The notes under the pieces are model-generated. The model was not told the origin of the DNA and made no database searches. It saw only the letters and a list, made by a program, of their open reading frames with translations. This document shows, one piece after another, positions 7,906 to 32,000 of a stretch of DNA of 32,000 nt (position 1 is its first letter; each line of letters begins with the position of its first letter). Origin of the DNA: Halococcus sp. AFM35 (lineage in GTDB: Archaea; Halobacteriota; Halobacteria; Halobacteriales; Halococcaceae); the NCBI RefSeq assembly GCF_051195015.1, contig NZ_JBNTJU010000006.1, positions 98,720 through 130,719 of the forward strand. The letters run 5' to 3'. Made by a program: the position numbers and the translations under genes.

Positions 7906-8697
7906 ATGGGGACTTGGGAACACGTCGCGTTTCTCGCCGGCTCGGAAAACCGCGTTCGGGTTCTCGAAGCCCTCCGCGAACGGCCGCGCCGCCAGTGCGA
8001 ACTCGTCGATGCGTGTGGGCTGTCGCGCTCGACGGTCCACCGGACGCTCGACGGACTCGGAGAGCGTGAGTGGGTTCACAGCGAGGGTGGCGAGTACCGA
8101 CTCACGGTCGGCGGCCGGCTCGTACTCGACCAGTTCGACGCCCTCGAAACGGCCATCGAGCGCGTCGACGAGTGGGGACCGTTCCTCCAGCGCCTCGGCT
8201 CGGTCGGCGCGACGCTGCCGACGGCAGCGCTCGACGACGCACGGCTGGTGACGAACGCCCCCGAGAACCCCCACGCCACGATGAGCCACGTCACCGACGT
8301 GCTCGCCGCAGCCGATGGCGAGACGTTTCGGGGCATTTCCCCGGTCGTCAGCCCCGTGACCAACGAGGCCGCCCGCGAGCCGCTCGCAGCCGGTGTGGCG
8401 ATGGAACTCGTCATCGACGAGTCGGTGCTTGAGACCTCGCAGGCGGCCTACCCCGATGCGTTCGCGGCCGCCCACGACTTCGAGAACTTCAAACTGTTCC
8501 TCTCACCTGACGAAATCACGTTCGGGCTCACGGTTTTGGACGACCGCGCGCTGGTCTGTGCCCACGACGAACAGGGCACGCTATATGGGTGTCTCGACGG
8601 CACGAACGAGGCGCTCGTGCGGTGGGCGAACGACGTCTACGAAGACCATCGGGCGGCTGCCCGGCGTATCGATACTGTCCCTAGCCCTCGACAGTGA
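7906..8697 (+). CDS. HTH transcriptional regulator (ArsR-like wHTH with a C-terminal DUF1724/FilR1-like domain)
   Basis: The N-terminus AFLAGSENRVRVLEALRERPRRQCELVDACGLSRSTVHRTLDGL is a classic ArsR-type wHTH. The ~170 aa C-terminal domain fits the archaeal regulator family. The 3' end overlaps the convergent gene by 17 nt. Confidence 0.75.
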   Translation: MGTWEHVAFLAGSENRVRVLEALRERPRRQCELVDACGLSRSTVHRTLDGLGEREWVHSEGGEYRLTVGGRLVLDQFDALETAIERVDEWGPFLQRLGSVGATLPTAALDDARLVTNAPENPHATMSHVTDVLAAADGETFRGISPVVSPVTNEAAREPLAAGVAMELVIDESVLETSQAAYPDAFAAAHDFENFKLFLSPDEITFGLTVLDDRALVCAHDEQGTLYGCLDGTNEALVRWANDVYEDHRAAARRIDTVPSPRQ

Positions 8698-8980
8698 ATC
8701 GCGGCTCTTCGATGGCCTCGCTCTTGCAGTCGGGGCAGCGCGAGGGCCGGTTGATTCGGTCGTCGAAGCCCGCGAAGCCACAGTCACGACACTCCGGCGG
8801 GGCGACCAGCAGTTCTTCGTCGGTCGAATCGAGCGACTGAGCGACGTGTTCGACGTGGTCGAGGGCCGTCTCGGTCGTGATGGCGAACTCGCTGGCGAGG
8901 GTGCTCGCGGCGGCCGGCTGTTCGCGGAGGTGGTCGGCGATGCGCTGGCGCGTCGTCGCGTCGGCATCCGCTCGGCGCAT
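8681..8980 (-). CDS. Transcriptional regulator with an HTH fused to a C-terminal zinc ribbon (COG3357-like)
   Basis: This is track ORF 8681..9064, trimmed to ATG 8980 ([18 protein letters not shown]). The HTH is followed by CRDCGF...CPDC, a 2x CxxC zinc ribbon. Confidence 0.7.
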
Positions 8981-11966: not shown

Positions 11967-12047
11967 CGGGATCTGTCGCTCACTCGGGTGACCGTTCGCA
12001 GTGCGGTCGTCCGATACCCTCAAACCACAGCCCCACCGGTGTCCGGT

Positions 12048-14492
12048 ATGGAGTTCCACGAGGCGGCAAACTTCCTCTTCGGGCTGCGTCGGTATCCGCC
12101 ACGACCGGGACTGGACGCGACGGCGGATCTCCTTTCGTATCTCGACGACCCACACGACGGGGTGACGTTCGTTCAGATCGCCGGCTCGAACGGCAAGGGA
12201 AGCACCGCGAGACTGCTCGAATCGGTGCTTCGGGAGGCGGGTCTCGACGTCGGTCTCTACACCTCGCCACATCTCGACTCCGTCCGCGAACGCGTCCGCG
12301 TCAACGACCGCATGTTGTCCGAGAGCGCACTCACCGAGTACGTCGAGACCGTCAGACCATACGTCCTCGACCGGGCGGCCGCCGGCGAGTCGCCCACCTT
12401 CTTCGAGGTTGTCACCGGGATGGCACTGTGGGAGTTCCAGCGGCAGTCGGTCGACGTCGCCGTGCTCGAAGTCGGTCTCGGCGGGCGCTACGACGCGACC
12501 AGCGTCGTCGAGCCGGTGGCGAGTGCCGTCACCAGCGTCGCGCTCGAACACACCGACACCCTCGGCGACACAGTAGCGGAGATCGGGCGCGATATGGCCA
12601 CCGTCGCACCCCGGCGGAACGAACTCGTGACCGCCGCGACCGGCGACGCGCGCGCGGCAATCACAGAAAGTGTCGACGACGCACTGACAGTCGGCCCGGA
12701 CGGTGACATAGCAGTGCACTACGACGGACGGGTGGATATCGAGAGCGCCATCGGGCTTTCGGGCAATGACTGGCGTCTCGAAACACGGCTCTCGTTGCTG
12801 GGTGCGCATCAGGCGAACAACGCCGGCGTCGCGACGGCACTTGCCCGACAGGTCGCCGACGAGTTCGCCATCGACCTCGATGAGGAGACCCTCGCCGCCG
12901 GGCTGCGTGGGGCGTACTGGCCCGGCCGTTTCGAGGTGCTCGAACGCGATCCATTGGTGGTGCTCGACGGTGCACACAACCCCGGCGCGTGCGAGCGCCT
13001 CGCCGACACCTTGGGCGAGTTCGACTTCGAGGACCTCCATCTGGTCTTCGGCGCGCTCGCCGACAAGGACCATCGGAGAATGGCCGACGCGCTCCCCACG
13101 CCCGAGCACGTCGTCGCCTGCCGGCCGGACGTCCCGCGCGCCGAGGACAACGCGGTTCTCGCGGACGTCTTCGAGGAGAGTCACGTCGAGACCCGCAGCG
13201 ACGTCACGGATGCGCTCCGAGCCGCGATGAAGGAAGCCAGTTCCGACGACTGCGTGCTCGTCTGTGGCTCGCTCTATACGGTGCGCGAGGCGCGAACGCG
13301 CTGGAGCCGCCTCGACGTGCCCAAAGCAATCGACGGACTCGACGATGCGCGCCGCGCGCTCGAAAACACCCACGTCACCGACGCGGGGACCTACCGGATG
13401 CGCGGCAAAGCCGTCCATCGGGCGCTGAAGACCCGCGTGCGCCCGCGACAGGCCCAATATCTCAAGGAGGAACTCCTCTCGCTCGGCGGCGAGTGCGCTC
13501 TTTCAGGACTCAACGACCAAGACGAGGAGTATCTCGACGTGCTCATGCTGGGGACGCTCGCGCAGTTCAAACGCCTCTCCGAGAAACTCGCCGCCCAGCC
13601 CTATGGACTGGAGCCGCTCGCCGACGGGGTTCGGGAGGCGCTCTCGATAGGCGTCGAGTCCGACTCCCGTGGCTACCCGTGGGAGGAGGGGACGGCGGTG
13701 ATGGGTATCCTCAACGTGACGCCCGACAGCTTCCACGACGGCGGCGAGTTCAACAGTATCGAGACTGCGGTCCGGCGGGCCGAGGCGATGGTCGAGGAAG
13801 GGGTGGACATCATCGACGTGGGCGGTGAGAGCACCCGTCCCGGCGCGGAACCGGTCTCGGCCGACGAAGAGCGCGAGCGCGTGGTGCCCGTCATCGAGCG
13901 CATCAGCGAGTTCGATGCCCTGATTGCGGTCGACACCCGGAAGGCGGCGGTCGCGCGCGCAGCACTCGACGCCGGTGCAGACATCGTGAACGACGTTTCC
14001 GGATTGGCGGACCCCGAGATGCGCTTCGTCGCCGCCGAGTACGACTGCCCGCTGGTCGTGATGCACAGCATCGATACGCCCGTGGACCCCGATTCGACCC
14101 CCGAATACGACGACGTGGTCGAGGATACCATCCGCGAGCTACGCGAGCGCGTGCTGCTCGCCGAGAAGGCGGGTCTCGATAGGAGAAAAATCATCGTCGA
14201 CCCCGGTATCGGCTTCGGAAAGGACAGGAAAGAGAACTTCGCAATCCTCGGTCGGCTGGGCGAGTTCGACGCGCTCGACTGCCCGATTCTGTTCGGCCAC
14301 TCGCACAAGTCGATGTTCGACCTCGTCGGCAGCGAGGACGAGCGCCTACCAGCGACGGTGGCCGCGAGCGCGCTGGCCGCCGAGCGCGGTGCGGACATCG
14401 TGCGCGTTCACGACGTGGCCGAAAACGTCGCCGCCGTGGGCGTCAGCGAGGCGGCAACGGCCCCGAACGAGTTCGACAGCTCGGACGATTAG
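12048..14492 (+). CDS. folCP: Bifunctional folylpolyglutamate/dihydrofolate synthase - dihydropteroate synthase (FolC-FolP fusion)
   Basis: This is track ORF 11988..14492, with the start taken at ATG 12048 ([11 protein letters not shown]). The N-terminal Mur-ligase/FolC P-loop is GSNGKGST. The C-terminal pterin-binding DHPS domain has [27 protein letters not shown] and VMH. This fusion is described for Haloferax volcanii. Confidence 0.88.
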
Positions 14493-15472
14493 GTCGCTGT
14501 GGTGGTTGTTGACTCCGCCGTCGCAGTCGTCGTCACGGTTTCGGTTGCAGTGTCCGTTGCCGTGGTCGTTGCGGCTGCGATGACGGTCGAGGTATCGGTT
14601 GCGGTGGGCGATTGCGTCGCGGTTGCTGTCGGCTCCGGCGTAACCGTTGTCATCGGCTGACGCTCCGTCGATAGCCCCGTTGACGGTTCCGTTTCAGCGG
14701 TCGTCGGCGACTCGGTTGGCGTGTCCGTCGCGGTCTCGATGGCTGTTGGCGTCGGCGTCTCCGTGGCCGTCACTGGTGTCGTCGTGGTCGTCGAAGAACT
14801 CGTCGCGGTTGTCGTCTCGGATTCCGTCGTCGATTCATCGCTCGGCGGTGCGGTGGTCGTCTCCGTCGTACTCTGTGTGTCCGTCTCCGAGGGTGGCGGC
14901 GTATCGGTCGGCGTTGGCGTGGCGGTCGGTGTCGGCGTTTCGGTCTCGGTAGGCGTTCGCGTGGGTGTCTCGGTCGGCGTTTCGGTTTCTTCCGGCGTAG
15001 CAGTCGGCGTTGGCGTTGCGGTGTCCGCCGGTTCTGCAGTGTCGGTTTCGGTTGCCGTCGGCGTCGCGGTCGCCGTTTCGGTTGGCGTTTGCGTGTCGGT
15101 CTCGGTCGACGTATCGGTTGACGTTTCGGTCGCCGTAGCCGTCGGCATTGCTGTGGCGGTCGGTGTTGCTGTCGCAGTCGGCGTCGGCGTTTCGGTCGCC
15201 GTCGAAGTCGACTGGGCGGTCGTCGCGGTGGCGTTTGCGGTGGTCGGGATGGCCGTCGTGTTGTTCGCCGGGGCGGCCCCCACGCCGGAGCGGTCGGCGT
15301 CGGCCGGACCGTTCGGGCTGCCCCCGAGATAGTCAGTGACGAGAAACCCCACACCGGCGAGCAAGACGAGCACGACCACGACGCCGACGGCCGGTGCTAG
15401 CCACTTCTCGACGTTCGAGAGGCCCTCGCGGTCGAGCAGCCCCGAATCCGATTCCGGCCCCGGTTCGATCAC
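14489..15472 (-). CDS. Membrane-anchored Thr/Pro/Glu/Ala-rich low-complexity (mucin-like) surface protein
   Basis: A short N-terminus (GTG start; the start is uncertain) is followed by one TM helix, [22 protein letters not shown]. About 260 aa of [12 protein letters not shown]-type degenerate repeats follow, with no globular domain and no PGF-CTERM. The opposite-strand ORF (VGVGVSVAV...) is a shadow. Its stop overlaps the folCP stop. Confidence 0.65.
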
Positions 15473-23885: not shown

Positions 23886-24349
23886 CCAGCGTCGGTGAGT
23901 CGCTGCGCAACACTGTGCTCGACGGCGTCGGTCGCTTCGCGGGCCGCGCCCAGGAGCGCCGCCCGCTGCCGACGGACCTCCTCGAAAGCGACGACGCCTA
24001 TCTCGTCGTCTTCGACGCGCCCGACGCGAGTGCCGCCGACGTACAGGTCCGGTTCTCCGACGGTTCGGTCCACGTCCGCATCGACCGCAGCCGCGAACAC
24101 CGCGAGGGCTTCGAGATGCGCTTTCCTGGGCGCGGCCTCTCGCTCGATGGAAGCGTGCGACTTCCCGCCGAGGCGACAGTGGACCCCGACGCAGCCACCG
24201 CGACGCTCACCGCCGAGGGGACGCTCGAAGTCGAACTGCCGAAAGTCGAGGGAACTGAGGACGGACCGATACGGATTTCGGCCGACGAAGGGAGCGAAAC
24301 AGACGTCATCGACGAGCGGAGCGACGAGGACGCCAGCGGTTCGAAGTGA
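23882..24349 (+). CDS. Hsp20/alpha-crystallin family small heat-shock protein
   Basis: This is track ORF 23837..24349. The alpha-crystallin core is DLLESDDAYLVVFDAPDASAADVQVRF...ATLTAEGTLEVELPK. The start is taken at GTG 23882, which overlaps the zinc-finger stop (GTGA); the start is uncertain. Confidence 0.78.
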   Translation: MTSVGESLRNTVLDGVGRFAGRAQERRPLPTDLLESDDAYLVVFDAPDASAADVQVRFSDGSVHVRIDRSREHREGFEMRFPGRGLSLDGSVRLPAEATVDPDAATATLTAEGTLEVELPKVEGTEDGPIRISADEGSETDVIDERSDEDASGSK

Positions 24350-24579
24350 GACACTCGCGCGACCAGTCTTCGATCACGAACATCCGAAGTCGAGTCGACC
24401 CGGTATACCACGGTCGCCGTGTATCCGACCGCAGTCGAACCGTTCGAGCTTCTATACTGTCGGACAGATCCGTCTCGGAAACGCAGCTCGAATATCCAGT
24501 TGCTGTCCGGCGTCTTCGGCCGGTCGATATTCACCCACTTCTGTACAATAGTATATATAATCTATGCCAAAGGAAACCG

Positions 24580-25902
24580 CTATTGCCCTTCGGTCTCGTA
24601 CGAAAGCGCGACAACGCGACCGTCGCCGTAGATCGTATATAGCTCCGCTGCCCGGTCGTCGTCCGTGTTCGCAATCGTCGGATGGACGTATACCGGCACG
24701 TTTCGCTCGTAGGTGGCGCGCACGTTCCCTGTGCCAGGGTCAACCACCGAGACGATGCCGTTGTTCGTTACCGCCACCACCTCGGGGTCGCCATCACCGT
24801 CGATATCGCCCATGCTCGGTGGTGGCGTCATCGGCACGTCCTCGGTGGTGAGTTGAGTCGTCCACTCGACGGTACCATCGCTCGCGTTGATACTCCTGAG
24901 TTTGCCGTCCTTGGCGGTCGCATAGACCTCGGCAGCTCCGTCTTCATCACCGTCACCAAATGCATGTACCGCCGCCAATTCACCGAGGTCCTTTCGCCAC
25001 TGCACCGCCCCGCGTTCGCCGTCGAGCGCGACCACCCGTCCGCCGAACGTCGCAGCGACGATCTCGACCGCTTCGTCGCCATCGGCCTGCCCGGTCGTCA
25101 TCCACGTGATCGACGTCTCGAACGGTGTCGTTCGGTTCCATCTGACCGTTCCGTTCTCGTCCAACAGGACGACTTTCTGGCCGGTCCCGACGGCTATCTC
25201 ATTGTCGTTGTCGCCAGTGAAATCGGCGACCGCGGGTTGGGCTTCGGTCTGCGAGTCGAGTTTCCGGGTCCAGACCGCGGTTCCATTGGGTCGAAGCACG
25301 AAGGCCGTCCCGCGGAAGTCGACGACGACGATTTCGTCGGTAGCGTTGCCGGTCACGTCCGCGACGAGGGGTTGGGTGTAGCCGTAGTCGGTGAGGTTGT
25401 ACGTGAACTCCTGTCTCCCGGTTTTGGGGTCAAGAGCGGTGACGATGTCTTCGGTCGTAGTGGCGACGACCTCTTTCGTCCCGTCATTGTCGAAATCGGC
25501 GAGCGTCGGGTCGGCGACCGAGTGAATCGTACAGTTCGCCGGCGGGACCGTATACCGCCACTGTGGCGTGGCGCTGTCGGCGGTCATCGCCACGAGCCGG
25601 CAGCTACTGGTGTCTCCACCCCCGCTGACCGGCGCGAACACCATCCCTTTGCCGTCGACCTTTCCGGCTGCGGGCGCATGATGGTTCCCGAGGATATCAG
25701 TGGACGTGTTGCTCACCCATCGTTCGTCAAGCGTGCCGCTGGAACTGCTGAGGCTGCTGTACCCGACGACCGCGGTTCCAGCGAGCACTGAAATGAGGAG
25801 CACCACCGCCACGACGGTCCGCGCCTGCATGCGCTCGCGTATCGCCCGGTTGCGAATAAGGTCTCGTGTTGAACCGACCGATTCGAGAACCGTACTACTC
25901 AC
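24580..25902 (-). CDS. Membrane-anchored FG-GAP/VCBS-type beta-propeller protein (paralog 1)
   Basis: The N-terminal TM is TVVAVVLLISVLAGTAVVG. There are repeated Ca-binding-like blade motifs: ADFDNDGTKEVV, ADVTGNATDEIVV, ADFTGDNDNEIAV, GDGDEDGAAEVYA, GDIDGDGDPEVVA and NTDDDRAAELY. It has many N-x-S/T sequons. The start is either GTG 25902 or ATG 25830. Confidence 0.75.
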   Translation of the reverse strand: MSSTVLESVGSTRDLIRNRAIRERMQARTVVAVVLLISVLAGTAVVGYSSLSSSSGTLDERWVSNTSTDILGNHHAPAAGKVDGKGMVFAPVSGGGDTSSCRLVAMTADSATPQWRYTVPPANCTIHSVADPTLADFDNDGTKEVVATTTEDIVTALDPKTGRQEFTYNLTDYGYTQPLVADVTGNATDEIVVVDFRGTAFVLRPNGTAVWTRKLDSQTEAQPAVADFTGDNDNEIAVGTGQKVVLLDENGTVRWNRTTPFETSITWMTTGQADGDEAVEIVAATFGGRVVALDGERGAVQWRKDLGELAAVHAFGDGDEDGAAEVYATAKDGKLRSINASDGTVEWTTQLTTEDVPMTPPPSMGDIDGDGDPEVVAVTNNGIVSVVDPGTGNVRATYERNVPVYVHPTIANTDDDRAAELYTIYGDGRVVALSYETEGQ

Positions 25903-25996
25903 TGGCTGGTTCGGTCGTTGCTATGATTGGTCGATATTGTGAGCTGTGGACGGTGGGCTGGTCGGGGTATTTCGGTTCTACAAGTGCTGTATTCGG

Positions 25997-27259
25997 CTAC
26001 GCGGCGTACGAAAGCGCAACGACACGAGCATCGCCGTAGATGACGAAGATTTCCTCCCGACCGTCGTTGTCGAAATCAGCGACTCGGGGGAACGTATTGA
26101 TCGGGACATCGCGTTTGTACGAATCGACTATCTCGCCGGTTTCCGGGTCGACGACTGCAATGAGACCCGTGCCAGTCACGGCGACGAGTTCGGGGTCACC
26201 GTTTCCATCAAGGTCGCCCATGCTCGGCGGTGCCATAACGTACACACCCTCTTCGGTCGTGAGTGTCGTTTTCCATTCGACGCTTCCATTTGATGCGGTG
26301 AAGCTTCTGAGCGTCCCGTCTCTTGCGGCAGCATAGACCTCCGGGTCACCATCGCTATCGCCATCACCGAATGCCTTGACGGTCGCCCCTCTGGCGCTGA
26401 CGTTCCGTTGCCATTCAACTGAGCTATTTTCGCCATCGAGCATCGTCACTTCACCGAAAAAGCTTGCAAACACCAACTCAGTCGCTGCGTCGCTGTCGGC
26501 CTGTCCAGTCGTCATCCATTTCGTCGTCGTTGCGTTCGGGAGGTTCCGCTGCCACGCGACGCTGCCGTTACGTTCGAGCACGGTTGCTTTCCCGCTCAAC
26601 TGGCCAATCGCTATCTCTGGGTCGTTGTCGGCGTCAAAATCAGCAACTGCTGGCTGACGAACCTGTGCGTCGGCAAACTTTTCTCGCCACGCGAGGGTCC
26701 CGTTCTGCCGGAAGGCAAACACTCCGCCGAGGAGATCGGCGACGATGGTTTCGTTACCATCTGCCGGGAGGATGTCGGCGATGAGCGGCTTCGAGTAGCC
26801 ATACGAGGTGAGTCGGTGTCGGAACTCTTCGCGTCCAGTCTGGAGATCGTAGGCAACGAGGTCTTTCGTGCTGGTTGCGGCGATCACCTCGTGGTCGCCG
26901 TCGCCGTCGAAGTCGGCGATTGTCGGGTCCGATACCGAATGGATCGTACAGGCTTCCGAGGCGATGGATTGCTGCCAGCGTTGTTCGCCGCTTCCGTTAA
27001 GCACCGTGAGCAGACACGTCTCACCTTGTCGGCTGTTGATGGGCACGGCAACGAACGATTCCCCATCGATGGCGGCGACGGCCGGCGTATGGTGATTGGA
27101 TTCGAGCATCGCCGGCGGGTCACTCACCCATAGTTCGGTAAGCGTTCCATTGTCGACGCTGTTACCCCCAGTGTCACTCGGACCAACCACTCCGAACGCT
27201 GCGGCACCGGCTAGTCCTGCGAAAACAACGAGTGCCGCCATCACGGTCCGCAAGCGCAT
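25997..27259 (-). CDS. Membrane-anchored/secreted FG-GAP/VCBS-type beta-propeller protein (paralog 2)
   Basis: It is collinear with paralog 1. Shared features include the NHH(A/T)PA motif, CTIHSV.DPT(L/I)ADFD, YGY..PL(V/I)AD, QPAVADF, WMTTGQAD, PPSMGD(I/L)DG and the C-terminal GD.RVVALSY. The start is ATG 27259, with GTG 27265 also possible. It is visibly lower in GC than paralog 1. Confidence 0.75.
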   Translation of the reverse strand: MRLRTVMAALVVFAGLAGAAAFGVVGPSDTGGNSVDNGTLTELWVSDPPAMLESNHHTPAVAAIDGESFVAVPINSRQGETCLLTVLNGSGEQRWQQSIASEACTIHSVSDPTIADFDGDGDHEVIAATSTKDLVAYDLQTGREEFRHRLTSYGYSKPLIADILPADGNETIVADLLGGVFAFRQNGTLAWREKFADAQVRQPAVADFDADNDPEIAIGQLSGKATVLERNGSVAWQRNLPNATTTKWMTTGQADSDAATELVFASFFGEVTMLDGENSSVEWQRNVSARGATVKAFGDGDSDGDPEVYAAARDGTLRSFTASNGSVEWKTTLTTEEGVYVMAPPSMGDLDGNGDPELVAVTGTGLIAVVDPETGEIVDSYKRDVPINTFPRVADFDNDGREEIFVIYGDARVVALSYAA

Positions 27260-27374
27260 TGGCACTCACGTATGACCCGGGTGGGATAAGACTATCCGTG
27301 AGATGAGCGAATTCGAGAATCGAACCAATGGGGCGTATCAACGGTCTCTTTGCTGTTCCAACGCGAGCAAGGGC

Positions 27375-28751
27375 ATGGACAAGCGCCGGACCGTATTCAT
27401 CGTGCTGGTCGCACTCACGGCGTTTGTCGGCGTCACGAGTGCCCATCAGATTCAGAGTTCACGCTTCACCGCACCGATCCCGCTTTCTTTGCTGTTCGGC
27501 GGTGCAGGAGTCACGGTCGCCGCCACGGCGGCATGGCTTGCGATAACGGGTGAGCGCTCGACGGTGGTGCGGACGCAGCCCGTGTTCGTAATTCCGACGA
27601 ACCTCGCAACGCTCGTACGATACGGGGCACGAGCGGTCTTCTTCGGCGGATTTCTCGTCGTTATCGTTCGCGGCTTCTTCGGTCCGCAGATCGCTGCCGA
27701 GAACTTCGCAACGGTGTTCGTCTGGGCAGTGTGGTTCAAAGGCGTCGGCCTGCTTGCGATTCTCGTCGGGAGCCCGTGGCGCGTACTCTCGCCGTGGCGG
27801 ACGCTCTACGACGGGCTGGTGCGAATCGAGGGAAGCGACATCGCGCTGTTCGATGCGTATCCGTCGTGGCTCGGCTATTGGCCCGCATTCGGGGGATTCG
27901 TCGTCGGCATCGGTATCTTCGAGAACCTCACGGTCGTTCCACGTTCACCGGCGGCGACGGCGGTCGTCATCGCCGGGTATGCCGCGGCGATGGTTCTCGG
28001 TGCGGTCGCCTTCGGTCGGGAGTGGTTTCGCCATGCCGATGCGCTATCGGTGCTCTATCGACTGTTCGGGCGGGTTGCTCCAGTGGAGTTCGTCGCGGCG
28101 GATGACGGCTACCGGGTCGTGTTTCGGCCGCCGTGGACCGGCTGTACGCGTCCCATCGAGCGGTTCGGCCTCGTCGCGTTCGTCGTCGCCACGGTCTACA
28201 CGGTGAGCTTCGATGGCTTTACGAACACGCCGGAGTTCCAGAGTCTCCTGTTCGGTCTCCGGGACCTGCTCGCGACCGGTCCCGGAACGAGCGTGCTCGT
28301 GTACGTCCTCGGATTGGCTGGATTCATCGCGGCGTTCGTCGGCGTCAGCATGGCGATGGAGACCGTCAGTGGGAGTGGTGGATGGCGGGGGACGGCCGTC
28401 GCGTTCGCACCGACGATACTACCGATTGCCGCGGCCTACGAGGTCGCCCACAACTATCCGTTCGTCGTCGAGCGGCTCGGGCGGCTCGCGGCCGTCGCGT
28501 GGTCGCTCGCCGTCTCTCCGATGGAACCGATCAGTCTGCTCTGGTGGCTGTCTGTCCCGGTGTTCTGGGGGTCACAGGTGCTGCTCATCGTCGCCGGACA
28601 TATCATCGCCGTCGTGGCCGCTCACTCTGTGGCGGTCGAGCGCTACGAGACGCTCTCCCGAGCCAGACGGGCACACCTCCCGCTCGTGGCACTGATGGTG
28701 GGCTATACGGTGCTCTCGCTGTGGATCATCTCGCGGCCGGTCGTCTCGTGA
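27375..28751 (+). CDS. Polytopic membrane protein of unknown family (~11-12 TM helices)
   Basis: This is track ORF 27303..28751, trimmed to ATG 27375 (MDKRRTVFIVLVALTAFVGVTSAHQ). It has hydrophobic segments throughout. Recurrent motifs are SPWRVLSPWRTLYDG and GHIIAVVAAHSVAVERY. I recognise no family by eye. Confidence 0.7.
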   Translation: MDKRRTVFIVLVALTAFVGVTSAHQIQSSRFTAPIPLSLLFGGAGVTVAATAAWLAITGERSTVVRTQPVFVIPTNLATLVRYGARAVFFGGFLVVIVRGFFGPQIAAENFATVFVWAVWFKGVGLLAILVGSPWRVLSPWRTLYDGLVRIEGSDIALFDAYPSWLGYWPAFGGFVVGIGIFENLTVVPRSPAATAVVIAGYAAAMVLGAVAFGREWFRHADALSVLYRLFGRVAPVEFVAADDGYRVVFRPPWTGCTRPIERFGLVAFVVATVYTVSFDGFTNTPEFQSLLFGLRDLLATGPGTSVLVYVLGLAGFIAAFVGVSMAMETVSGSGGWRGTAVAFAPTILPIAAAYEVAHNYPFVVERLGRLAAVAWSLAVSPMEPISLLWWLSVPVFWGSQVLLIVAGHIIAVVAAHSVAVERYETLSRARRAHLPLVALMVGYTVLSLWIISRPVVS

Positions 28752-28888
28752 CAGCTCGTGATTCGACTCGCACACCAGAATGGTTATTCGCGCGACCACC
28801 CAATCGTGGGCAATGGAACGGCGGAGTCGTCACCTTCAGGACGCCCTTGTTGCTGGGTCCGGTACGGGTGCGCTCGCTTGCGTGAAGT

Positions 28889-28897
28889 GGGAGGTGA
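28889..28897 (+). promoter_or_regulatory. Shine-Dalgarno-like GGGAGGTGA, 9 nt upstream of ATG 28907
   Basis: It has an 8-nt complementarity to the conserved archaeal 16S rRNA 3' end (..GAUCACCUCC..). This is unusual in a genome where most genes look leaderless or closely packed. Confidence 0.45.
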
Positions 28898-28906
28898 CGT
28901 TCTGAG

Positions 28907-29272
28907 ATGAAACTACTAAACATCGTTCTGCATTTGGGAGTGAACCGAGGCTCCGCACTACTCGGCGAGGTTGCACTGCCGACCGTCCTCGTCATCACGG
29001 GAATCGTCTCGTTGGCCGTTCTCGGACTCGGTGTCGTTGCGTTGGCACAGCGACGCTCGCGGTCGTATCTGTTGATCACGATGGCGCTCGGAACGTTGGT
29101 GGGACGCACGCTGGTCGGCGGGCTGGCCGTGGATGGAACGGTTGCGATGGAGTTCCACCACCTCATCGAACACGCGCTCGACGGCGTGATGGCCGCCTTG
29201 TTGCTCGCCGCAGTGTATTACGCCCGCATGACCGAGCGTCCGAAACTGACTACCAATGAACAAGACTCGTAA
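28907..29272 (+). CDS. Small membrane protein (3 predicted TM helices), translationally coupled to the downstream regulator
   Basis: The protein is 121 aa. The TM segments are LPTVLVITGIVSLAVLGLGVVAL, YLLITMALGTLVGRTLVGGL and GVMAALLLAAVYYA. A His-rich loop is EFHHLIEH. It overlaps the next gene by 17 nt. Confidence 0.6.
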   Translation: MKLLNIVLHLGVNRGSALLGEVALPTVLVITGIVSLAVLGLGVVALAQRRSRSYLLITMALGTLVGRTLVGGLAVDGTVAMEFHHLIEHALDGVMAALLLAAVYYARMTERPKLTTNEQDS

Positions 29273-29780
29273 GCGAATCGCTCGGCGCATCCACACGGCT
29301 CCCGGCATTCACTTCAACGAACTCGTACGGGTGCTCGACCTCGCACCCGGACAGGTCCAATACCATCTGAAGCAGCTGTGTTCGTCGGGAGCGGTAACCG
29401 ACGAGCAGCGATACGGTCGGACCCACTACTACCCGCCCGAGTGCAACGAGTGGCGACGCGGCGCGCTCTCGCTGTTGCGCCGCGAGACCGCTGGCGATAT
29501 CGTCGCACTGCTCTGTGACCGCGGACCAACACGGCCACAGACGATAGCCGATGACCTCGATATCGCTCGCAGCACGCTCGAATGGCATGCTGACCATCTC
29601 ACCGAACAGGACGTCGTCCGCAAAGAGCGCGACGAGCGCAATCACGTCACGCTCGCGCTCGTTCGGCCCGCCGAGACGGCGCGGTTGCTGCGAGAGGTCA
29701 CCCCGTCGTCGCCGGCGCTGATGGTTGATCGCTTCATCCGCTTGACCGACCGATTGTTAGAGGATGCGACTGACGGGTAG
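29256..29780 (+). CDS. ArsR-like transcriptional regulator with two winged-helix domains
   Basis: The first wHTH is IHTAPGIHFNELVRVLDLAPGQVQYHLKQLCSSGAV. The second is LCDRGPTRPQTIADDLDIARSTLEWHADHLTEQDVV. The protein is 174 aa. Confidence 0.72.
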   Translation: MNKTRKRIARRIHTAPGIHFNELVRVLDLAPGQVQYHLKQLCSSGAVTDEQRYGRTHYYPPECNEWRRGALSLLRRETAGDIVALLCDRGPTRPQTIADDLDIARSTLEWHADHLTEQDVVRKERDERNHVTLALVRPAETARLLREVTPSSPALMVDRFIRLTDRLLEDATDG

Positions 29781-29839
29781 CCGGTCATCTACTATCGGGC
29801 CTTCGAAGAACGAGAAATGGCCGAAGAACGTTGTCTGAG

Positions 29840-30907
29840 TTAGTGATCCGCTATAAACTGTTGAGCAATTGGGAGAAATTGGTCCATCGAGCGAGCAGAA
29901 TTGAATGCATCGGGTGCGGGTCGCTGAAGATGTAGCAGCTGGAAATAGGTCTGGTGATTGGCTTCCACGCTGTGGATGCTGAGTGCGGCCTCCAAGACCT
30001 CCGTATCGTCGATCATGGGCGCAACGCCGGCGTAGGCTGACACACCCACAGCCTCGATGCGGTCGCTGAGCGCAACAAATTCCTCGATGCCATCATACGG
30101 GAATTCATACTTGGCCGGTTCGACGGGGTTGCCGCCGAGTTTCTCGATGGTATTGGTGAGTTTCTCGACGTGGGCTTCCTCGTGGTCGCGTACATCCTGA
30201 ATCTGCTGGTAGGTCGAATACTGGAGCGTCGGCCGCGCGAAGTAGTTCGCGACCTCCGAACGCTCGACTTCGCTTTCGGAGTAGCTGTCGAGGAAATCGT
30301 TGTAATACGCCGCTTCTAAGTGTTCGAGCGTGAGTGCGTAGTTCAGGATATCGATATCGCTGACCTCCATATCGTCCGGGAGATGAATGGTATCCGTCCC
30401 ATGGAACCCGTGATGGTGCGTTTCCGGTCGCTCCCAGTAGAGCGTTCCTCTGGATTCGTCGCCGGTGAACCCTGTTCCATCGAGCGGGAATTGAAGAACG
30501 AGGTCGTCCTTGCCGTCGCCGTTAACATCTCTGACCTCGCCGTCATCAATCGGACGGGCACCGCCGCCCTGTCCAAGGAGTTCCTGCGTCCCGAAGCGGT
30601 ATCGCACCGGACGTTCGGTTGGGTCGAACGTTATCTCCGTTCCGGGTTTTTTGAGAATTCCCTCCTCATCCACGAAGGTGCTCTGGAGTATGGCTACCGA
30701 AACCCGGTCGTCCGTCTCGGGATCAATCTCGTTCTCGTTGCTTCCCGGTGCAATATTGATACGGAGTGCGTCAGGAAAGTGTGCGGACGCAATCGTGCTC
30801 ACTGCTGGAATCGCGGCAGCAGTCGCCGCCGCACCAATGGCAGTCTTGAGGAACGTTCGCCGTTCAGTACTCCCGACCAGTGCGCGTGAGATCTCTGTTG
30901 GTTTCAT
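29840..30907 (-). CDS. Tat-exported ferritin-like domain protein with an N-terminal beta-sandwich/Ca-binding-type module
   Basis: This is track ORF 29840..30946, trimmed to ATG 30907 (MKPTEISRALVGSTERRTFLKTAIGAAA), which carries a twin-arginine signal. The middle module contains DVNGDGKDDLVLQF. The C-terminal Ferritin_2-like domain has ILNYALTLEHLEAAYYNDF ... DHEEAHV ... EAVGVSAY ... HSVEANH. Confidence 0.75.
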   Translation of the reverse strand: MKPTEISRALVGSTERRTFLKTAIGAAATAAAIPAVSTIASAHFPDALRINIAPGSNENEIDPETDDRVSVAILQSTFVDEEGILKKPGTEITFDPTERPVRYRFGTQELLGQGGGARPIDDGEVRDVNGDGKDDLVLQFPLDGTGFTGDESRGTLYWERPETHHHGFHGTDTIHLPDDMEVSDIDILNYALTLEHLEAAYYNDFLDSYSESEVERSEVANYFARPTLQYSTYQQIQDVRDHEEAHVEKLTNTIEKLGGNPVEPAKYEFPYDGIEEFVALSDRIEAVGVSAYAGVAPMIDDTEVLEAALSIHSVEANHQTYFQLLHLQRPAPDAFNSARSMDQFLPIAQQFIADH

Positions 30908-31006
30908 CGTCTTTGTTTGATACCCCTTCCGGGTCAGGGCACCCAAATCAAGAGTTCATCCGGCACTGGATAGTAGCTTCTGGTGCATATCTCGAAATCA
31001 ATTTTC

Positions 31007-31012
31007 AAAAAA
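31007..31012 (-). terminator. T6 run (minus strand) 17 nt downstream of the distal HiPIP stop codon
   Basis: The minus strand reads TAG cgttggtacaatactaTTTTTTgaaaattg. The oligo-T follows the second stop (31029-31031), not the internal TAG at 31254-31256. Confidence 0.45.
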
Positions 31013-31028
31013 TAGTATTGTACCAACG

Positions 31029-31559
31029 CTACTTGTCAGTTTGATATGGACTGTAGCTAGCACACCACGCTGTCGGCTGGATATAGCCTTCGACGACACT
31101 ACATGCGCCAAGTCCGTCACCATTCTTATCGGGGATATAAAACATACAGCCCGAACACTGTCGGCCGTTCTTCGGTTGCGTTTGGTACTGGACAGCGCTT
31201 TTCGATTGGAGAGCATCCGAACTCCGTTTCGACCCACCTTGACTCGTCGCTGTCTAATAGACATCTGGAACGGAACCGCTCAACGCGGGCGTGCCGCTGT
31301 TGGTAGCTTTCGTATCGGTACCTTCAGTTGCCGTATCGTCACGATCAGTTCCAGCGGCCGCTCCGGGTGTGGTTTCAGGCTCACCTGTCGTGGCGCGGCC
31401 GCCACTATCGGAATCTGTTCCGCTCTCGATAGCTTTAGTAGTTGCTGCACCTTGCTCCTCTGCCCCGTTGTTGCTGGCACACCCGGCGAGACCAACAATC
31501 GCCGCACTACCGGCCAGTTGGAGGACAGTGCGTCGTGATTTCCGAGTGCTCCGATTCAT
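31029..31559 (-). pseudogene. Tat-lipoprotein HiPIP (high-potential iron-sulfur protein) interrupted by one in-frame TAG at 31254-31256
   Basis: ATG 31559 opens MNRSTRKSRRTVLQLAGSAAIVGLAGCASNNG, a twin-Arg signal with a lipobox Cys. A Thr/Gly/Asp-rich linker ends ...SGSVPDVY, then TAG. The same frame continues TATSQGGSKRSSDALQSKSAVQYQTQPKNGRQCSGCMFYIPDKNGDGLGACSVVEGYIQPTAWCASYSPYQTDK to TAG 31029-31031. The spacing C-x2-C-x14-C-x12-C with W before the last Cys matches the HiPIP cluster ligands. There is no in-frame ATG/GTG/TTG between the internal TAG and the CxxC. Confidence 0.7.
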
Positions 31560-31635
31560 CCGTTGGCTCCTTACTCTCGTTCGAAAGATGGTCGTTGTGG
31601 TCCAATAGTCGAAACCCGTCTGTCGGTCACTAGTT

Positions 31636-32000
31636 CTAACCCATGCTACCGGATCCACCAAGCGGTTGATAGTAGGGGATATCGGGCAGTGGAAGCATGA
31701 TACCGAAACGCATGAAACCCATCGCCAGCAGTACGTAGCCGAGACCGATGAACAGTACGCCGAGACCGTAGTGGACGACCTGTCGCTGGCGCGCGCTCAC
31801 CGACTGGATGACCGTACCATATAGGAAGACGCTCGGAATGGTACCGAGACCGAGCGCGCCGAGCGCGAGAAATCCATGAAGGGGCGATCCCTGTGCGAAC
31901 GCGTAGAGGAAGGCAGGATAGAGCAGCATGCAGGGGAGGAGACCGTGCAGCGCCCCCAGACCCATGATACCGACGCCGTTGACCCAGCGGTCGATGCGCG
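31636..32000 (-). CDS. DsbD_2/UreH-like (often annotated TauE/SafE) transmembrane protein, N-terminus beyond the window edge
   Basis: The track ORF 31636..31965 stays open upstream to position 32000 (..IDRWVNGVGIMGLGALHGLLPCMLLYPAFLYAF..). The HGLLPC..LYPA motif and 3-4 TM helices are visible. It is partial. Confidence 0.55.
   Translation of the reverse strand, partial: RIDRWVNGVGIMGLGALHGLLPCMLLYPAFLYAFAQGSPLHGFLALGALGLGTIPSVFLYGTVIQSVSARQRQVVHYGLGVLFIGLGYVLLAMGFMRFGIMLPLPDIPYYQPLGGSGSMG

Follow-up and report, generated by a model that had tools for sequence, protein, structure and literature searches.

The locus considered here raises the question of how an in-frame amber codon should be interpreted when it separates an apparently well preserved high-potential iron-sulfur protein (HiPIP) domain from its own export signal. 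The gene lies on the minus strand close to the end of a stretch of DNA of 32,000 nucleotides (the window, meaning throughout the whole stretch that was analysed). It had been singled out from the letters alone, the source being withheld, and the accompanying surmise that the DNA came from a haloarchaeon was correct, since it belongs to Halococcus sp. AFM35. Three explanations for the stop were put forward at that time: a very recent nonsense pseudogene, a sequencing or assembly error, and programmed or leaky amber read-through. The features on which the following analysis draws are these, in the order in which the minus strand is read.

31636 to 32000, minus strand: C-terminal 120 codons of a DsbD_2-family membrane protein (Pfam DsbD_2, 1.8e-18), the upstream neighbour, which runs off the window
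31567 to 31572, minus strand: AAGGAG, a putative Shine-Dalgarno-like sequence 7 nt upstream of the ATG at 31559, read from the sequence
31029 to 31559, minus strand: the whole disrupted HiPIP gene, 176 codons plus a terminal TAG, from translation
31479 to 31559, minus strand: signal region, codons 1 to 27, recognised at motif level
31257 to 31478, minus strand: linker, codons 28 to 92, rich in Thr, Asp, Gly and Glu and variable among relatives, followed by LSGSVPDVY, the start of a conserved block, codons 93 to 101, from alignment
31254 to 31256, minus strand: internal in-frame TAG, codon 102, from the codon and protein alignments and the sequence of P0038
31032 to 31253, minus strand: HiPIP domain, codons 103 to 176, from Pfam PF01355 and PDB alignments
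31157..31155, 31148..31146, 31103..31101 and 31064..31062, minus strand: codons of the Cys ligands C135, C138, C153 and C166, respectively
31029 to 31031, minus strand: terminal stop, TAG; H. thailandensis has TAG at the same place, and L001 has TGA
31007 to 31012, minus strand: run of six T (T6), 17-22 nt past the terminal stop, a plausible archaeal oligo-T termination signal, read from the sequence
29840 to 30907, minus strand: Ferritin_2 Tat-signal ferritin-like protein, 355 amino acids, intact (WP_435077240.1; Pfam 8.9e-38), the downstream neighbour

Translation of the minus-strand frame from the ATG at 31559 gives MNRSTRKSRRTVLQLAGSAAIVGLAGC...VPDVY-stop-TATSQGG...QCSGCMFYIPDKNGDGLGACSVVEGYIQPTAWCASYSPYQTDK-stop. 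Between MNRSTRKSRRTVLQLAGSAAIVGLAGC and the first TAG lies a Thr/Asp/Gly/Glu-rich stretch that leads into ...ALSGSVPDVY, and after the internal TAG the frame runs on as TATSQGGSKRSSDALQSKSAVQYQTQPKNGRQCSGCMFYIPDKNGDGLGACSVVEGYIQPTAWCASYSPYQTDK to the second TAG at 31031..31029. The original prediction, according to which the signal-plus-linker ORF ends at the TAG at 31254-31256 while the same frame continues for 74 more codons, is thereby confirmed, and the stop, which falls at codon 102, does separate the Tat-lipoprotein signal from the HiPIP domain. One refinement is called for, in that TAG 102 does not fall strictly between linker and domain; it interrupts a conserved block, L93..G109 (LSGPVPDVY-R/Q-TATSQGG), with which the folded domain begins at its extreme N-terminal side, and so lies outside the variable linker. 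The 88-residue ORF present downstream (30998..31264, minus strand) was rightly dismissed as unrelated; it occupies another frame, encodes Arg-rich nonsense and is not a gene.

The signal consists of a twin-arginine motif, S8-R9-R10-T-V-L (RR codons at 31535..31530), a hydrophobic stretch and a lipobox, L-A-G-C27, with the Cys codon at 31481..31479. In an alignment of 21 sequences R9 and R10 are at least 90% conserved, G26 and C27 are invariant, and the conserved form of the motif is SRRT[VF]L. The Pfam TAT_signal model was not reported at E<=1, so that the Tat-lipoprotein signal, as originally proposed, is upheld at the level of the motif and the invariant G26-C27 pair but not by the profile. 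At the other end of the gene the T6 run, at 31012..31007 on the coding strand, follows the second stop and not the internal one, as had been noted from the outset, and inspection of the sequence after the internal TAG revealed no run of five or more T. A scan for hairpin-type terminators found none; archaeal termination needs no hairpin.

HiPIPs carry a [4Fe-4S] cluster with a high potential (+50 to +450 mV). The 74 residues encoded after the TAG score 33.0 bits against Pfam HIPIP (PF01355), and the complete read-through protein 30.4 bits, where the cut-off is 22. The spacing of the ligands, read directly from the sequence, is C135-x2-C138-x14-C153-x12-C166, and the domain aligns to the solved HiPIPs 3H31 (E=1e-7) and 1ISU (5e-7) with all four Cys in register. 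The C-x2-C-x14-C-x12-C core recognised by eye is thus borne out both by a profile score above cut-off and by the Cys register. When residues are numbered from the start of the 74-residue domain, C33, C36 and C64 do not vary across 36 sequences, and C51 is at least 90% conserved. An AlphaFold2 model of the 74 residues, built from a 36-row alignment, was too poor to use (mean pLDDT 42, pTM 0.23). Assignment to the Iro 'iron oxidase' equivalog was rejected, the NCBIfam Iro model scoring only 34-36 bits where the cut-off is 100. Its profile score, ligand pattern and export signal place the gene in the HiPIP family; since a working HiPIP requires an open frame and this one is closed by the TAG at codon 102, the most fitting classification is as a disrupted member of the family, a pseudogene.

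Next, the state of the gene in relatives was examined. With the read-through protein as query, 35 other proteins were recovered at E<=1e-3, all of which have a HiPIP domain and all of which continue through the site of the stop; the sole truncated entry among the recovered proteins is P0011, the 101-residue product of the window itself. Nine of the relatives are full-length proteins of 174-176 amino acids with 79-90% identity, the H. thailandensis protein among them, and a tblastn search with the L009 orthologue matched residues 1-173, meeting a single stop in the subject. On the strength of these alignments the disrupted gene is taken to be the orthologue of the 174-176-residue Halococcus Tat-lipoprotein HiPIPs. 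A scan of species-representative genomes returned H. thailandensis and more distant HiPIPs, and two exact-pattern scans of metagenome contigs, one degenerate across the TAG site and the other for the conserved ACAGCGTGGTGTGCTAGCTACAG, gave no match.

The residue at position 102 is Arg in 18 of 19 aligned full-length relatives and Gln in the other (P0001), and Gln is found also in P0038, a further cluster member. Eight orthologous DNAs were compared, seven of them distinct (L013 and L014 are identical). In the codon alignment the site reads CGG in L002 (H. thailandensis), L009, L010, L011 and L012, and CAG in L001 and L013. The comparison of orthologues that had been suggested as a check therefore yields a sense codon in seven of seven distinct DNAs, and TAG recurs in no relative, as judged from the protein collection and the eight orthologous DNAs. 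Where L001 and L013 have TAC-CAG, the window has TAT-TAG; across the relatives the preceding codon is TAC or TAT. Because Ser96 (TCC) and the MNRSTRK N-terminus are common to the window and to its closest relative at the site, the CAG-bearing L001, the simplest history would be CGG > CAG > TAG, with a single C>T transition as the last step.

Two features of the mutated site may be recorded alongside. The change from TAC-CAG to TAT-TAG could represent one CC>TT tandem change of the UV type, yet TAT is also present in L010 and L011. Additionally, the nonsense change converts GTCT-ACC-AGAC, as found in relatives, to GTCTA-T-TAGAC, an 11-nt near-perfect palindrome (31251-31261, minus strand). Templated mutation via this palindrome was considered and set aside; the resemblance is probably due to chance, the arms being too short.

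The nature and age of the stop were approached through the pattern of substitution on either side of it. Relative to the orthologues, dN/dS is 0.25-0.58 before the TAG and 0.05-0.12 after it. Besides the stop itself, the AFM35 copy has three private non-synonymous changes before the TAG (A22V, E42K and T44I) and none after it, together with two private synonymous changes before and two after. Relaxed constraint downstream of the TAG was thus sought, in dN/dS and in private changes, and was not found. Had the whole terminal branch been neutral, approximately seven non-synonymous changes would have been expected downstream where none is seen (Poisson P(0) ~6e-4), a rough figure that depends on two synonymous events. 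Divergence from the nearest relative is 6% at the nucleotide level and the terminal branch is short. With two synonymous and no non-synonymous private changes after the TAG, the stop appears to be recent and, on this rough estimate, young even relative to that short branch. In a pseudogene the downstream part would remain intact only for a very short time after the stop arose, a point that limits the age of the stop and leaves the assignment to the class of pseudogenes as it was.

The private changes also have a directional character. The non-synonymous ones, four when the stop is counted, are all G:C>A:T transitions, comprising A22V (GCT>GTT), E42K (GAA>AAA), T44I (ACC>ATC) and Q102 to stop (CAG>TAG), whereas the four synonymous ones, at codons 53, 89, 109 and 125, are all A:T>G:C.

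Damage at the locus is confined to the one gene. The DsbD_2 gene upstream is 96.7% identical to its orthologue, has no stops and itself ends in TAG, with the same C-terminus in the window and in L012 (...GSGSMG followed by the stop). The Ferritin_2 protein downstream, an exact match to WP_435077240.1 of Halococcus sp. AFM35, shows 93.5% identity to that of L009 over 355 of 355 residues, again with no stops. Alignment with L009 runs from end to end, at 89-97% identity and with no stop or frameshift, for DsbD_2, Ferritin_2, an HTH_HVO_0163 regulator, DUF7471, a 458-residue protein and a PQQ propeller. The HiPIP gene is the only one hit, and its neighbours are intact and collinear with those of relatives.

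These neighbours form part of a conserved Halococcus cluster with the order DUF7405, COX15/CtaA-like, DUF7350 (with a faint Iron_transport match), DsbD_2, Tat-lipoprotein HiPIP and Tat-signal ferritin-like protein; beyond the ferritin-like gene lie the divergently oriented HTH_HVO_0163 regulator and then DUF7471. The cluster spans 28907-32000 in the window, 1939-8649 in L009, 1999-7719 in L012 and 1607-5167 in L011. The cluster may constitute a module for redox or iron handling outside the cytoplasm, and the uncharacterised set of DUF7350, DsbD_2, HiPIP and ferritin-like genes is arguably the better lead that this locus offers on such processes in haloarchaea. Across 24000-32000 the G+C content of the window declines, from approximately 0.66 in the first 23 kb to a value of 0.565 at 30-32 kb, placing the HiPIP cluster in DNA of lower G+C than its surroundings, and the cluster may be an acquired island. 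Homologues of DsbD_2 occur on plasmids of other haloarchaea, and on H. jeotgali plasmid 2 (L016), the single such locus inspected, the homologue adjoins a P-type ATPase; the search of plasmids revealed no syntenic HiPIP cluster.

Further observations concern annotation in and around the window. In L009 a 72-residue gene has been called at 8613-8831 (minus strand), overlapping both of its neighbours; the matching stretch of the window has 54% identity and two stops, and the call is probably spurious as opposed to marking a second broken gene in the window. At 11988-14492 (plus strand) the window encodes an intact 834-residue fusion of a Mur-ligase (FolC-like) and a pterin-binding (FolP-like) domain, which ends in TAG. 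The gene-free stretch of 1.3 kb between this folC/folP fusion and the next gene contains a single long ORF (14489-15472, minus strand), the 327 codons of which specify one hydrophobic segment and then approximately 280 residues of Thr/Ala/Pro/Glu low-complexity repeats.

The reading that best accommodates these data, and one that is considered probable, is that the TAG is a real and recent nonsense allele that inactivates the AFM35 copy of the HiPIP gene. A single C>T transition would have converted codon 102 from CAG (Gln) to TAG, and translation would stop there. The product would be a 101-residue precursor, which cleavage at Cys27 would reduce to a lipid-anchored, acidic linker peptide of approximately 75 residues. 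Such a peptide has none of the four cluster ligands, and the AFM35 copy would consequently be non-functional. The 74 codons downstream should not be expressed on their own account, because no start precedes the ligands and no export signal is present. The event would be very recent, given that neither the remainder of the gene nor the operon-like cluster around it has been touched. The first of the explanations offered at the outset, a very recent nonsense pseudogene, accordingly fits the sense codon in relatives, the one-step mutational path, the lack of downstream decay and the intact neighbours. The original prediction had linked a plain pseudogene to the presence of an intact gene in relatives together with the absence both of a peptide spanning the stop and of read-through in reporters; the first of these, the intact gene, is what was found.

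Loss of this copy is probably tolerated thanks to a paralogue. The AFM35 genome also encodes, on another contig (16,998 bp), P0016, an intact 'high-potential iron-sulfur protein' of 161 amino acids with 58% identity. P0016 has been called from MGSAAVASLAGC and is without the RR motif, whereas its near-identical relative P0010 has one (MDFTTRKPRRTVLHL...); the start of P0016 has probably been mis-called, as opposed to the protein being truncated in reality. Collapse of the two paralogues during assembly was rejected as the origin of the stop, the two being only 58% identical. Overall, the base would be real in the organism, there would be no useful read-through, and the paralogue would compensate.

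Complete absence of decay downstream is, of course, a double-edged observation, in that it fits an error or functional read-through equally well. If the T at 31256 is an artefact of base calling or assembly, then codon 102 in the organism is CAG or some other sense codon, and a normal 176-residue HiPIP is made. The second of the original explanations agrees with everything found, the TAG being one transition away from the CAG present in relatives and followed by a domain that has not decayed. The genome is a draft in multiple contigs (183 kb, 113 kb and 17 kb), and P0011 has 'ncbi' as its only source and no Logan entry, so that the collection holds no independent assembly of the same strain. 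Conversely, the local consensus looks clean, in that none of the six neighbouring genes set against relatives is shortened or has a stop or frameshift, and the site lies in neither a homopolymer nor a repeat. In short-read assemblies a substitution error in the consensus is a rare event, whereas prokaryotic genomes routinely contain internal-stop pseudogenes. Because of the clean local consensus and the greater rarity of such errors, an artefact is rated below a real nonsense allele and is regarded as unlikely, albeit as the main rival and a possibility to be taken seriously.

A much smaller probability attaches to functional amber read-through, in which a near-cognate tRNA (Gln-CUG or Tyr, for example) or a dedicated suppressor decodes UAG102 and the gene gives rise to both a short linker lipoprotein and a full-length HiPIP. 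The perfect preservation of the downstream domain could be cited in its favour, although recency of the stop explains this just as well. A near-cognate tRNA-Gln would presumably insert the ancestral Gln at the UAG, the oligo-T signal follows the second stop as opposed to the internal one, and basal read-through takes place at every stop codon. However, TAG is absent from every relative, and selection for a stop at the site is thus not visible; TAG is, moreover, a standard terminator both in the window and in the HiPIP gene itself, ending nine of the 27 probable genes in the window, seven of them with Pfam support, with the HiPIP gene and the upstream DsbD_2 gene included in the count. The 113 nt from the TAG onwards are not unusually structured (MFE -31.1 kcal/mol, against a mean of -30.2 for shuffled sequences; z = -0.25), and Rfam gave no match at E<=1 in 30000-32000. 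No tRNA(CUA) was found in the 32-kb window, where the only tRNA is Arg-CCG. Searches of the literature turned up no account of natural read-through or amber suppression among Halobacteria, and nothing relevant on strain AFM35 or on a haloarchaeal HiPIP.

The third of the original explanations, programmed or leaky read-through, accordingly receives no support, given a TAG that does not recur and is an ordinary terminator, with no RNA element and no tRNA(CUA) in the window. These comparisons do not amount to proof of zero read-through, but they remove every positive reason to propose it. That UAG102 is read through at a physiologically useful level, for instance by a tRNA-Gln that restores the ancestral residue, so that a full-length exported HiPIP is made next to the short lipoprotein, is considered more doubtful again. 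Were it true, it would constitute natural, tolerated amber leakiness in a haloarchaeon and the first natural example in Halobacteria.

The two remaining proposals are scarcely credible. A change of genetic code, or insertion of pyrrolysine at the UAG, has only the in-frame TAG itself to recommend it; pyrrolysine machinery is not known in Halobacteria, and in one published study the pyrrolysine-using halophile named, HMET1, is not a haloarchaeon, Haloferax serving there only as a heterologous test host. This proposal was rejected on the grounds that TAG is a common terminator in the window, ending nine of 27 genes at C-termini matched by orthologues, and the Arg or Gln of the orthologues shows that position 102 is not a conserved recoded one. 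Expression of the downstream part alone as a signal-less HiPIP, whether through re-initiation past the TAG or via an internal transcript, can draw on the existence of termination-reinitiation coupling in haloarchaea (PMC6728339) but is effectively refuted by the sequence, in which the TAG has no start codon overlapping it or directly beside it (TATTAGACA) and the first in-frame ATG, GTG or TTG is ATG139, past Cys135 and Cys138, so that the product would be without an export signal and two cluster ligands. The original contention that the domain cannot stand alone, there being no in-frame start between the TAG and the first Cys ligand and no signal, was therefore sound.

With the stop again read as a real and recent nonsense allele, the locus may be set beside known systems. 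In common with the HiPIP family (PF01355), of which 3H31 and 1ISU are the closest solved members by sequence, the gene specifies the same Cys register, a Pfam score that exceeds the gathering threshold, a small C-terminal domain of ~60-70 residues and an N-terminal twin-arginine export signal. The solved bacterial HiPIPs that it matches are short chains of 54-85 residues, whereas those of Halococcus are predicted to be lipoproteins and include a variable, acidic and Thr-rich linker of ~65 residues. The closest named orthologue, the 'high-potential iron-sulfur protein' of H. thailandensis JCM 13552 (P0009 / L002), is of equal length and is flanked by the same genes, which holds for metagenomic orthologues too. 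What distinguishes the AFM35 copy from the rest of the family is the internal TAG at codon 102, as a result of which the domain cannot be made.

With programmed UAG recoding, as represented by pyrrolysine in methanogens and leaky UAG codons in viruses and eukaryotes, the locus shares only an in-frame UAG and conserved coding sequence after it. Unlike in those systems, the stop is not conserved, no RNA element lies downstream, TAG is an ordinary terminator and the window contains no suppressor tRNA; every defining feature of programmed recoding that could be tested was missing. The appropriate comparison is with ordinary single-nonsense unitary pseudogenes of the kind annotated as 'internal stop', which likewise have one in-frame stop, intact orthologues, a one-step mutational path and nothing else changed, and here too a paralogue is present. 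The finding is in this respect an ordinary one, in a gene family already annotated in Halococcus, and a single strain-specific null allele, or an assembly error, matters little in itself. Its practical consequence lies in annotation, where the 101-residue 'protein' should be treated as a truncated fragment of a gene that deserves the label of internal-stop pseudogene. To judge from its sequence, nothing appears to set the AFM35 HiPIP locus apart from other pseudogenes of that kind.
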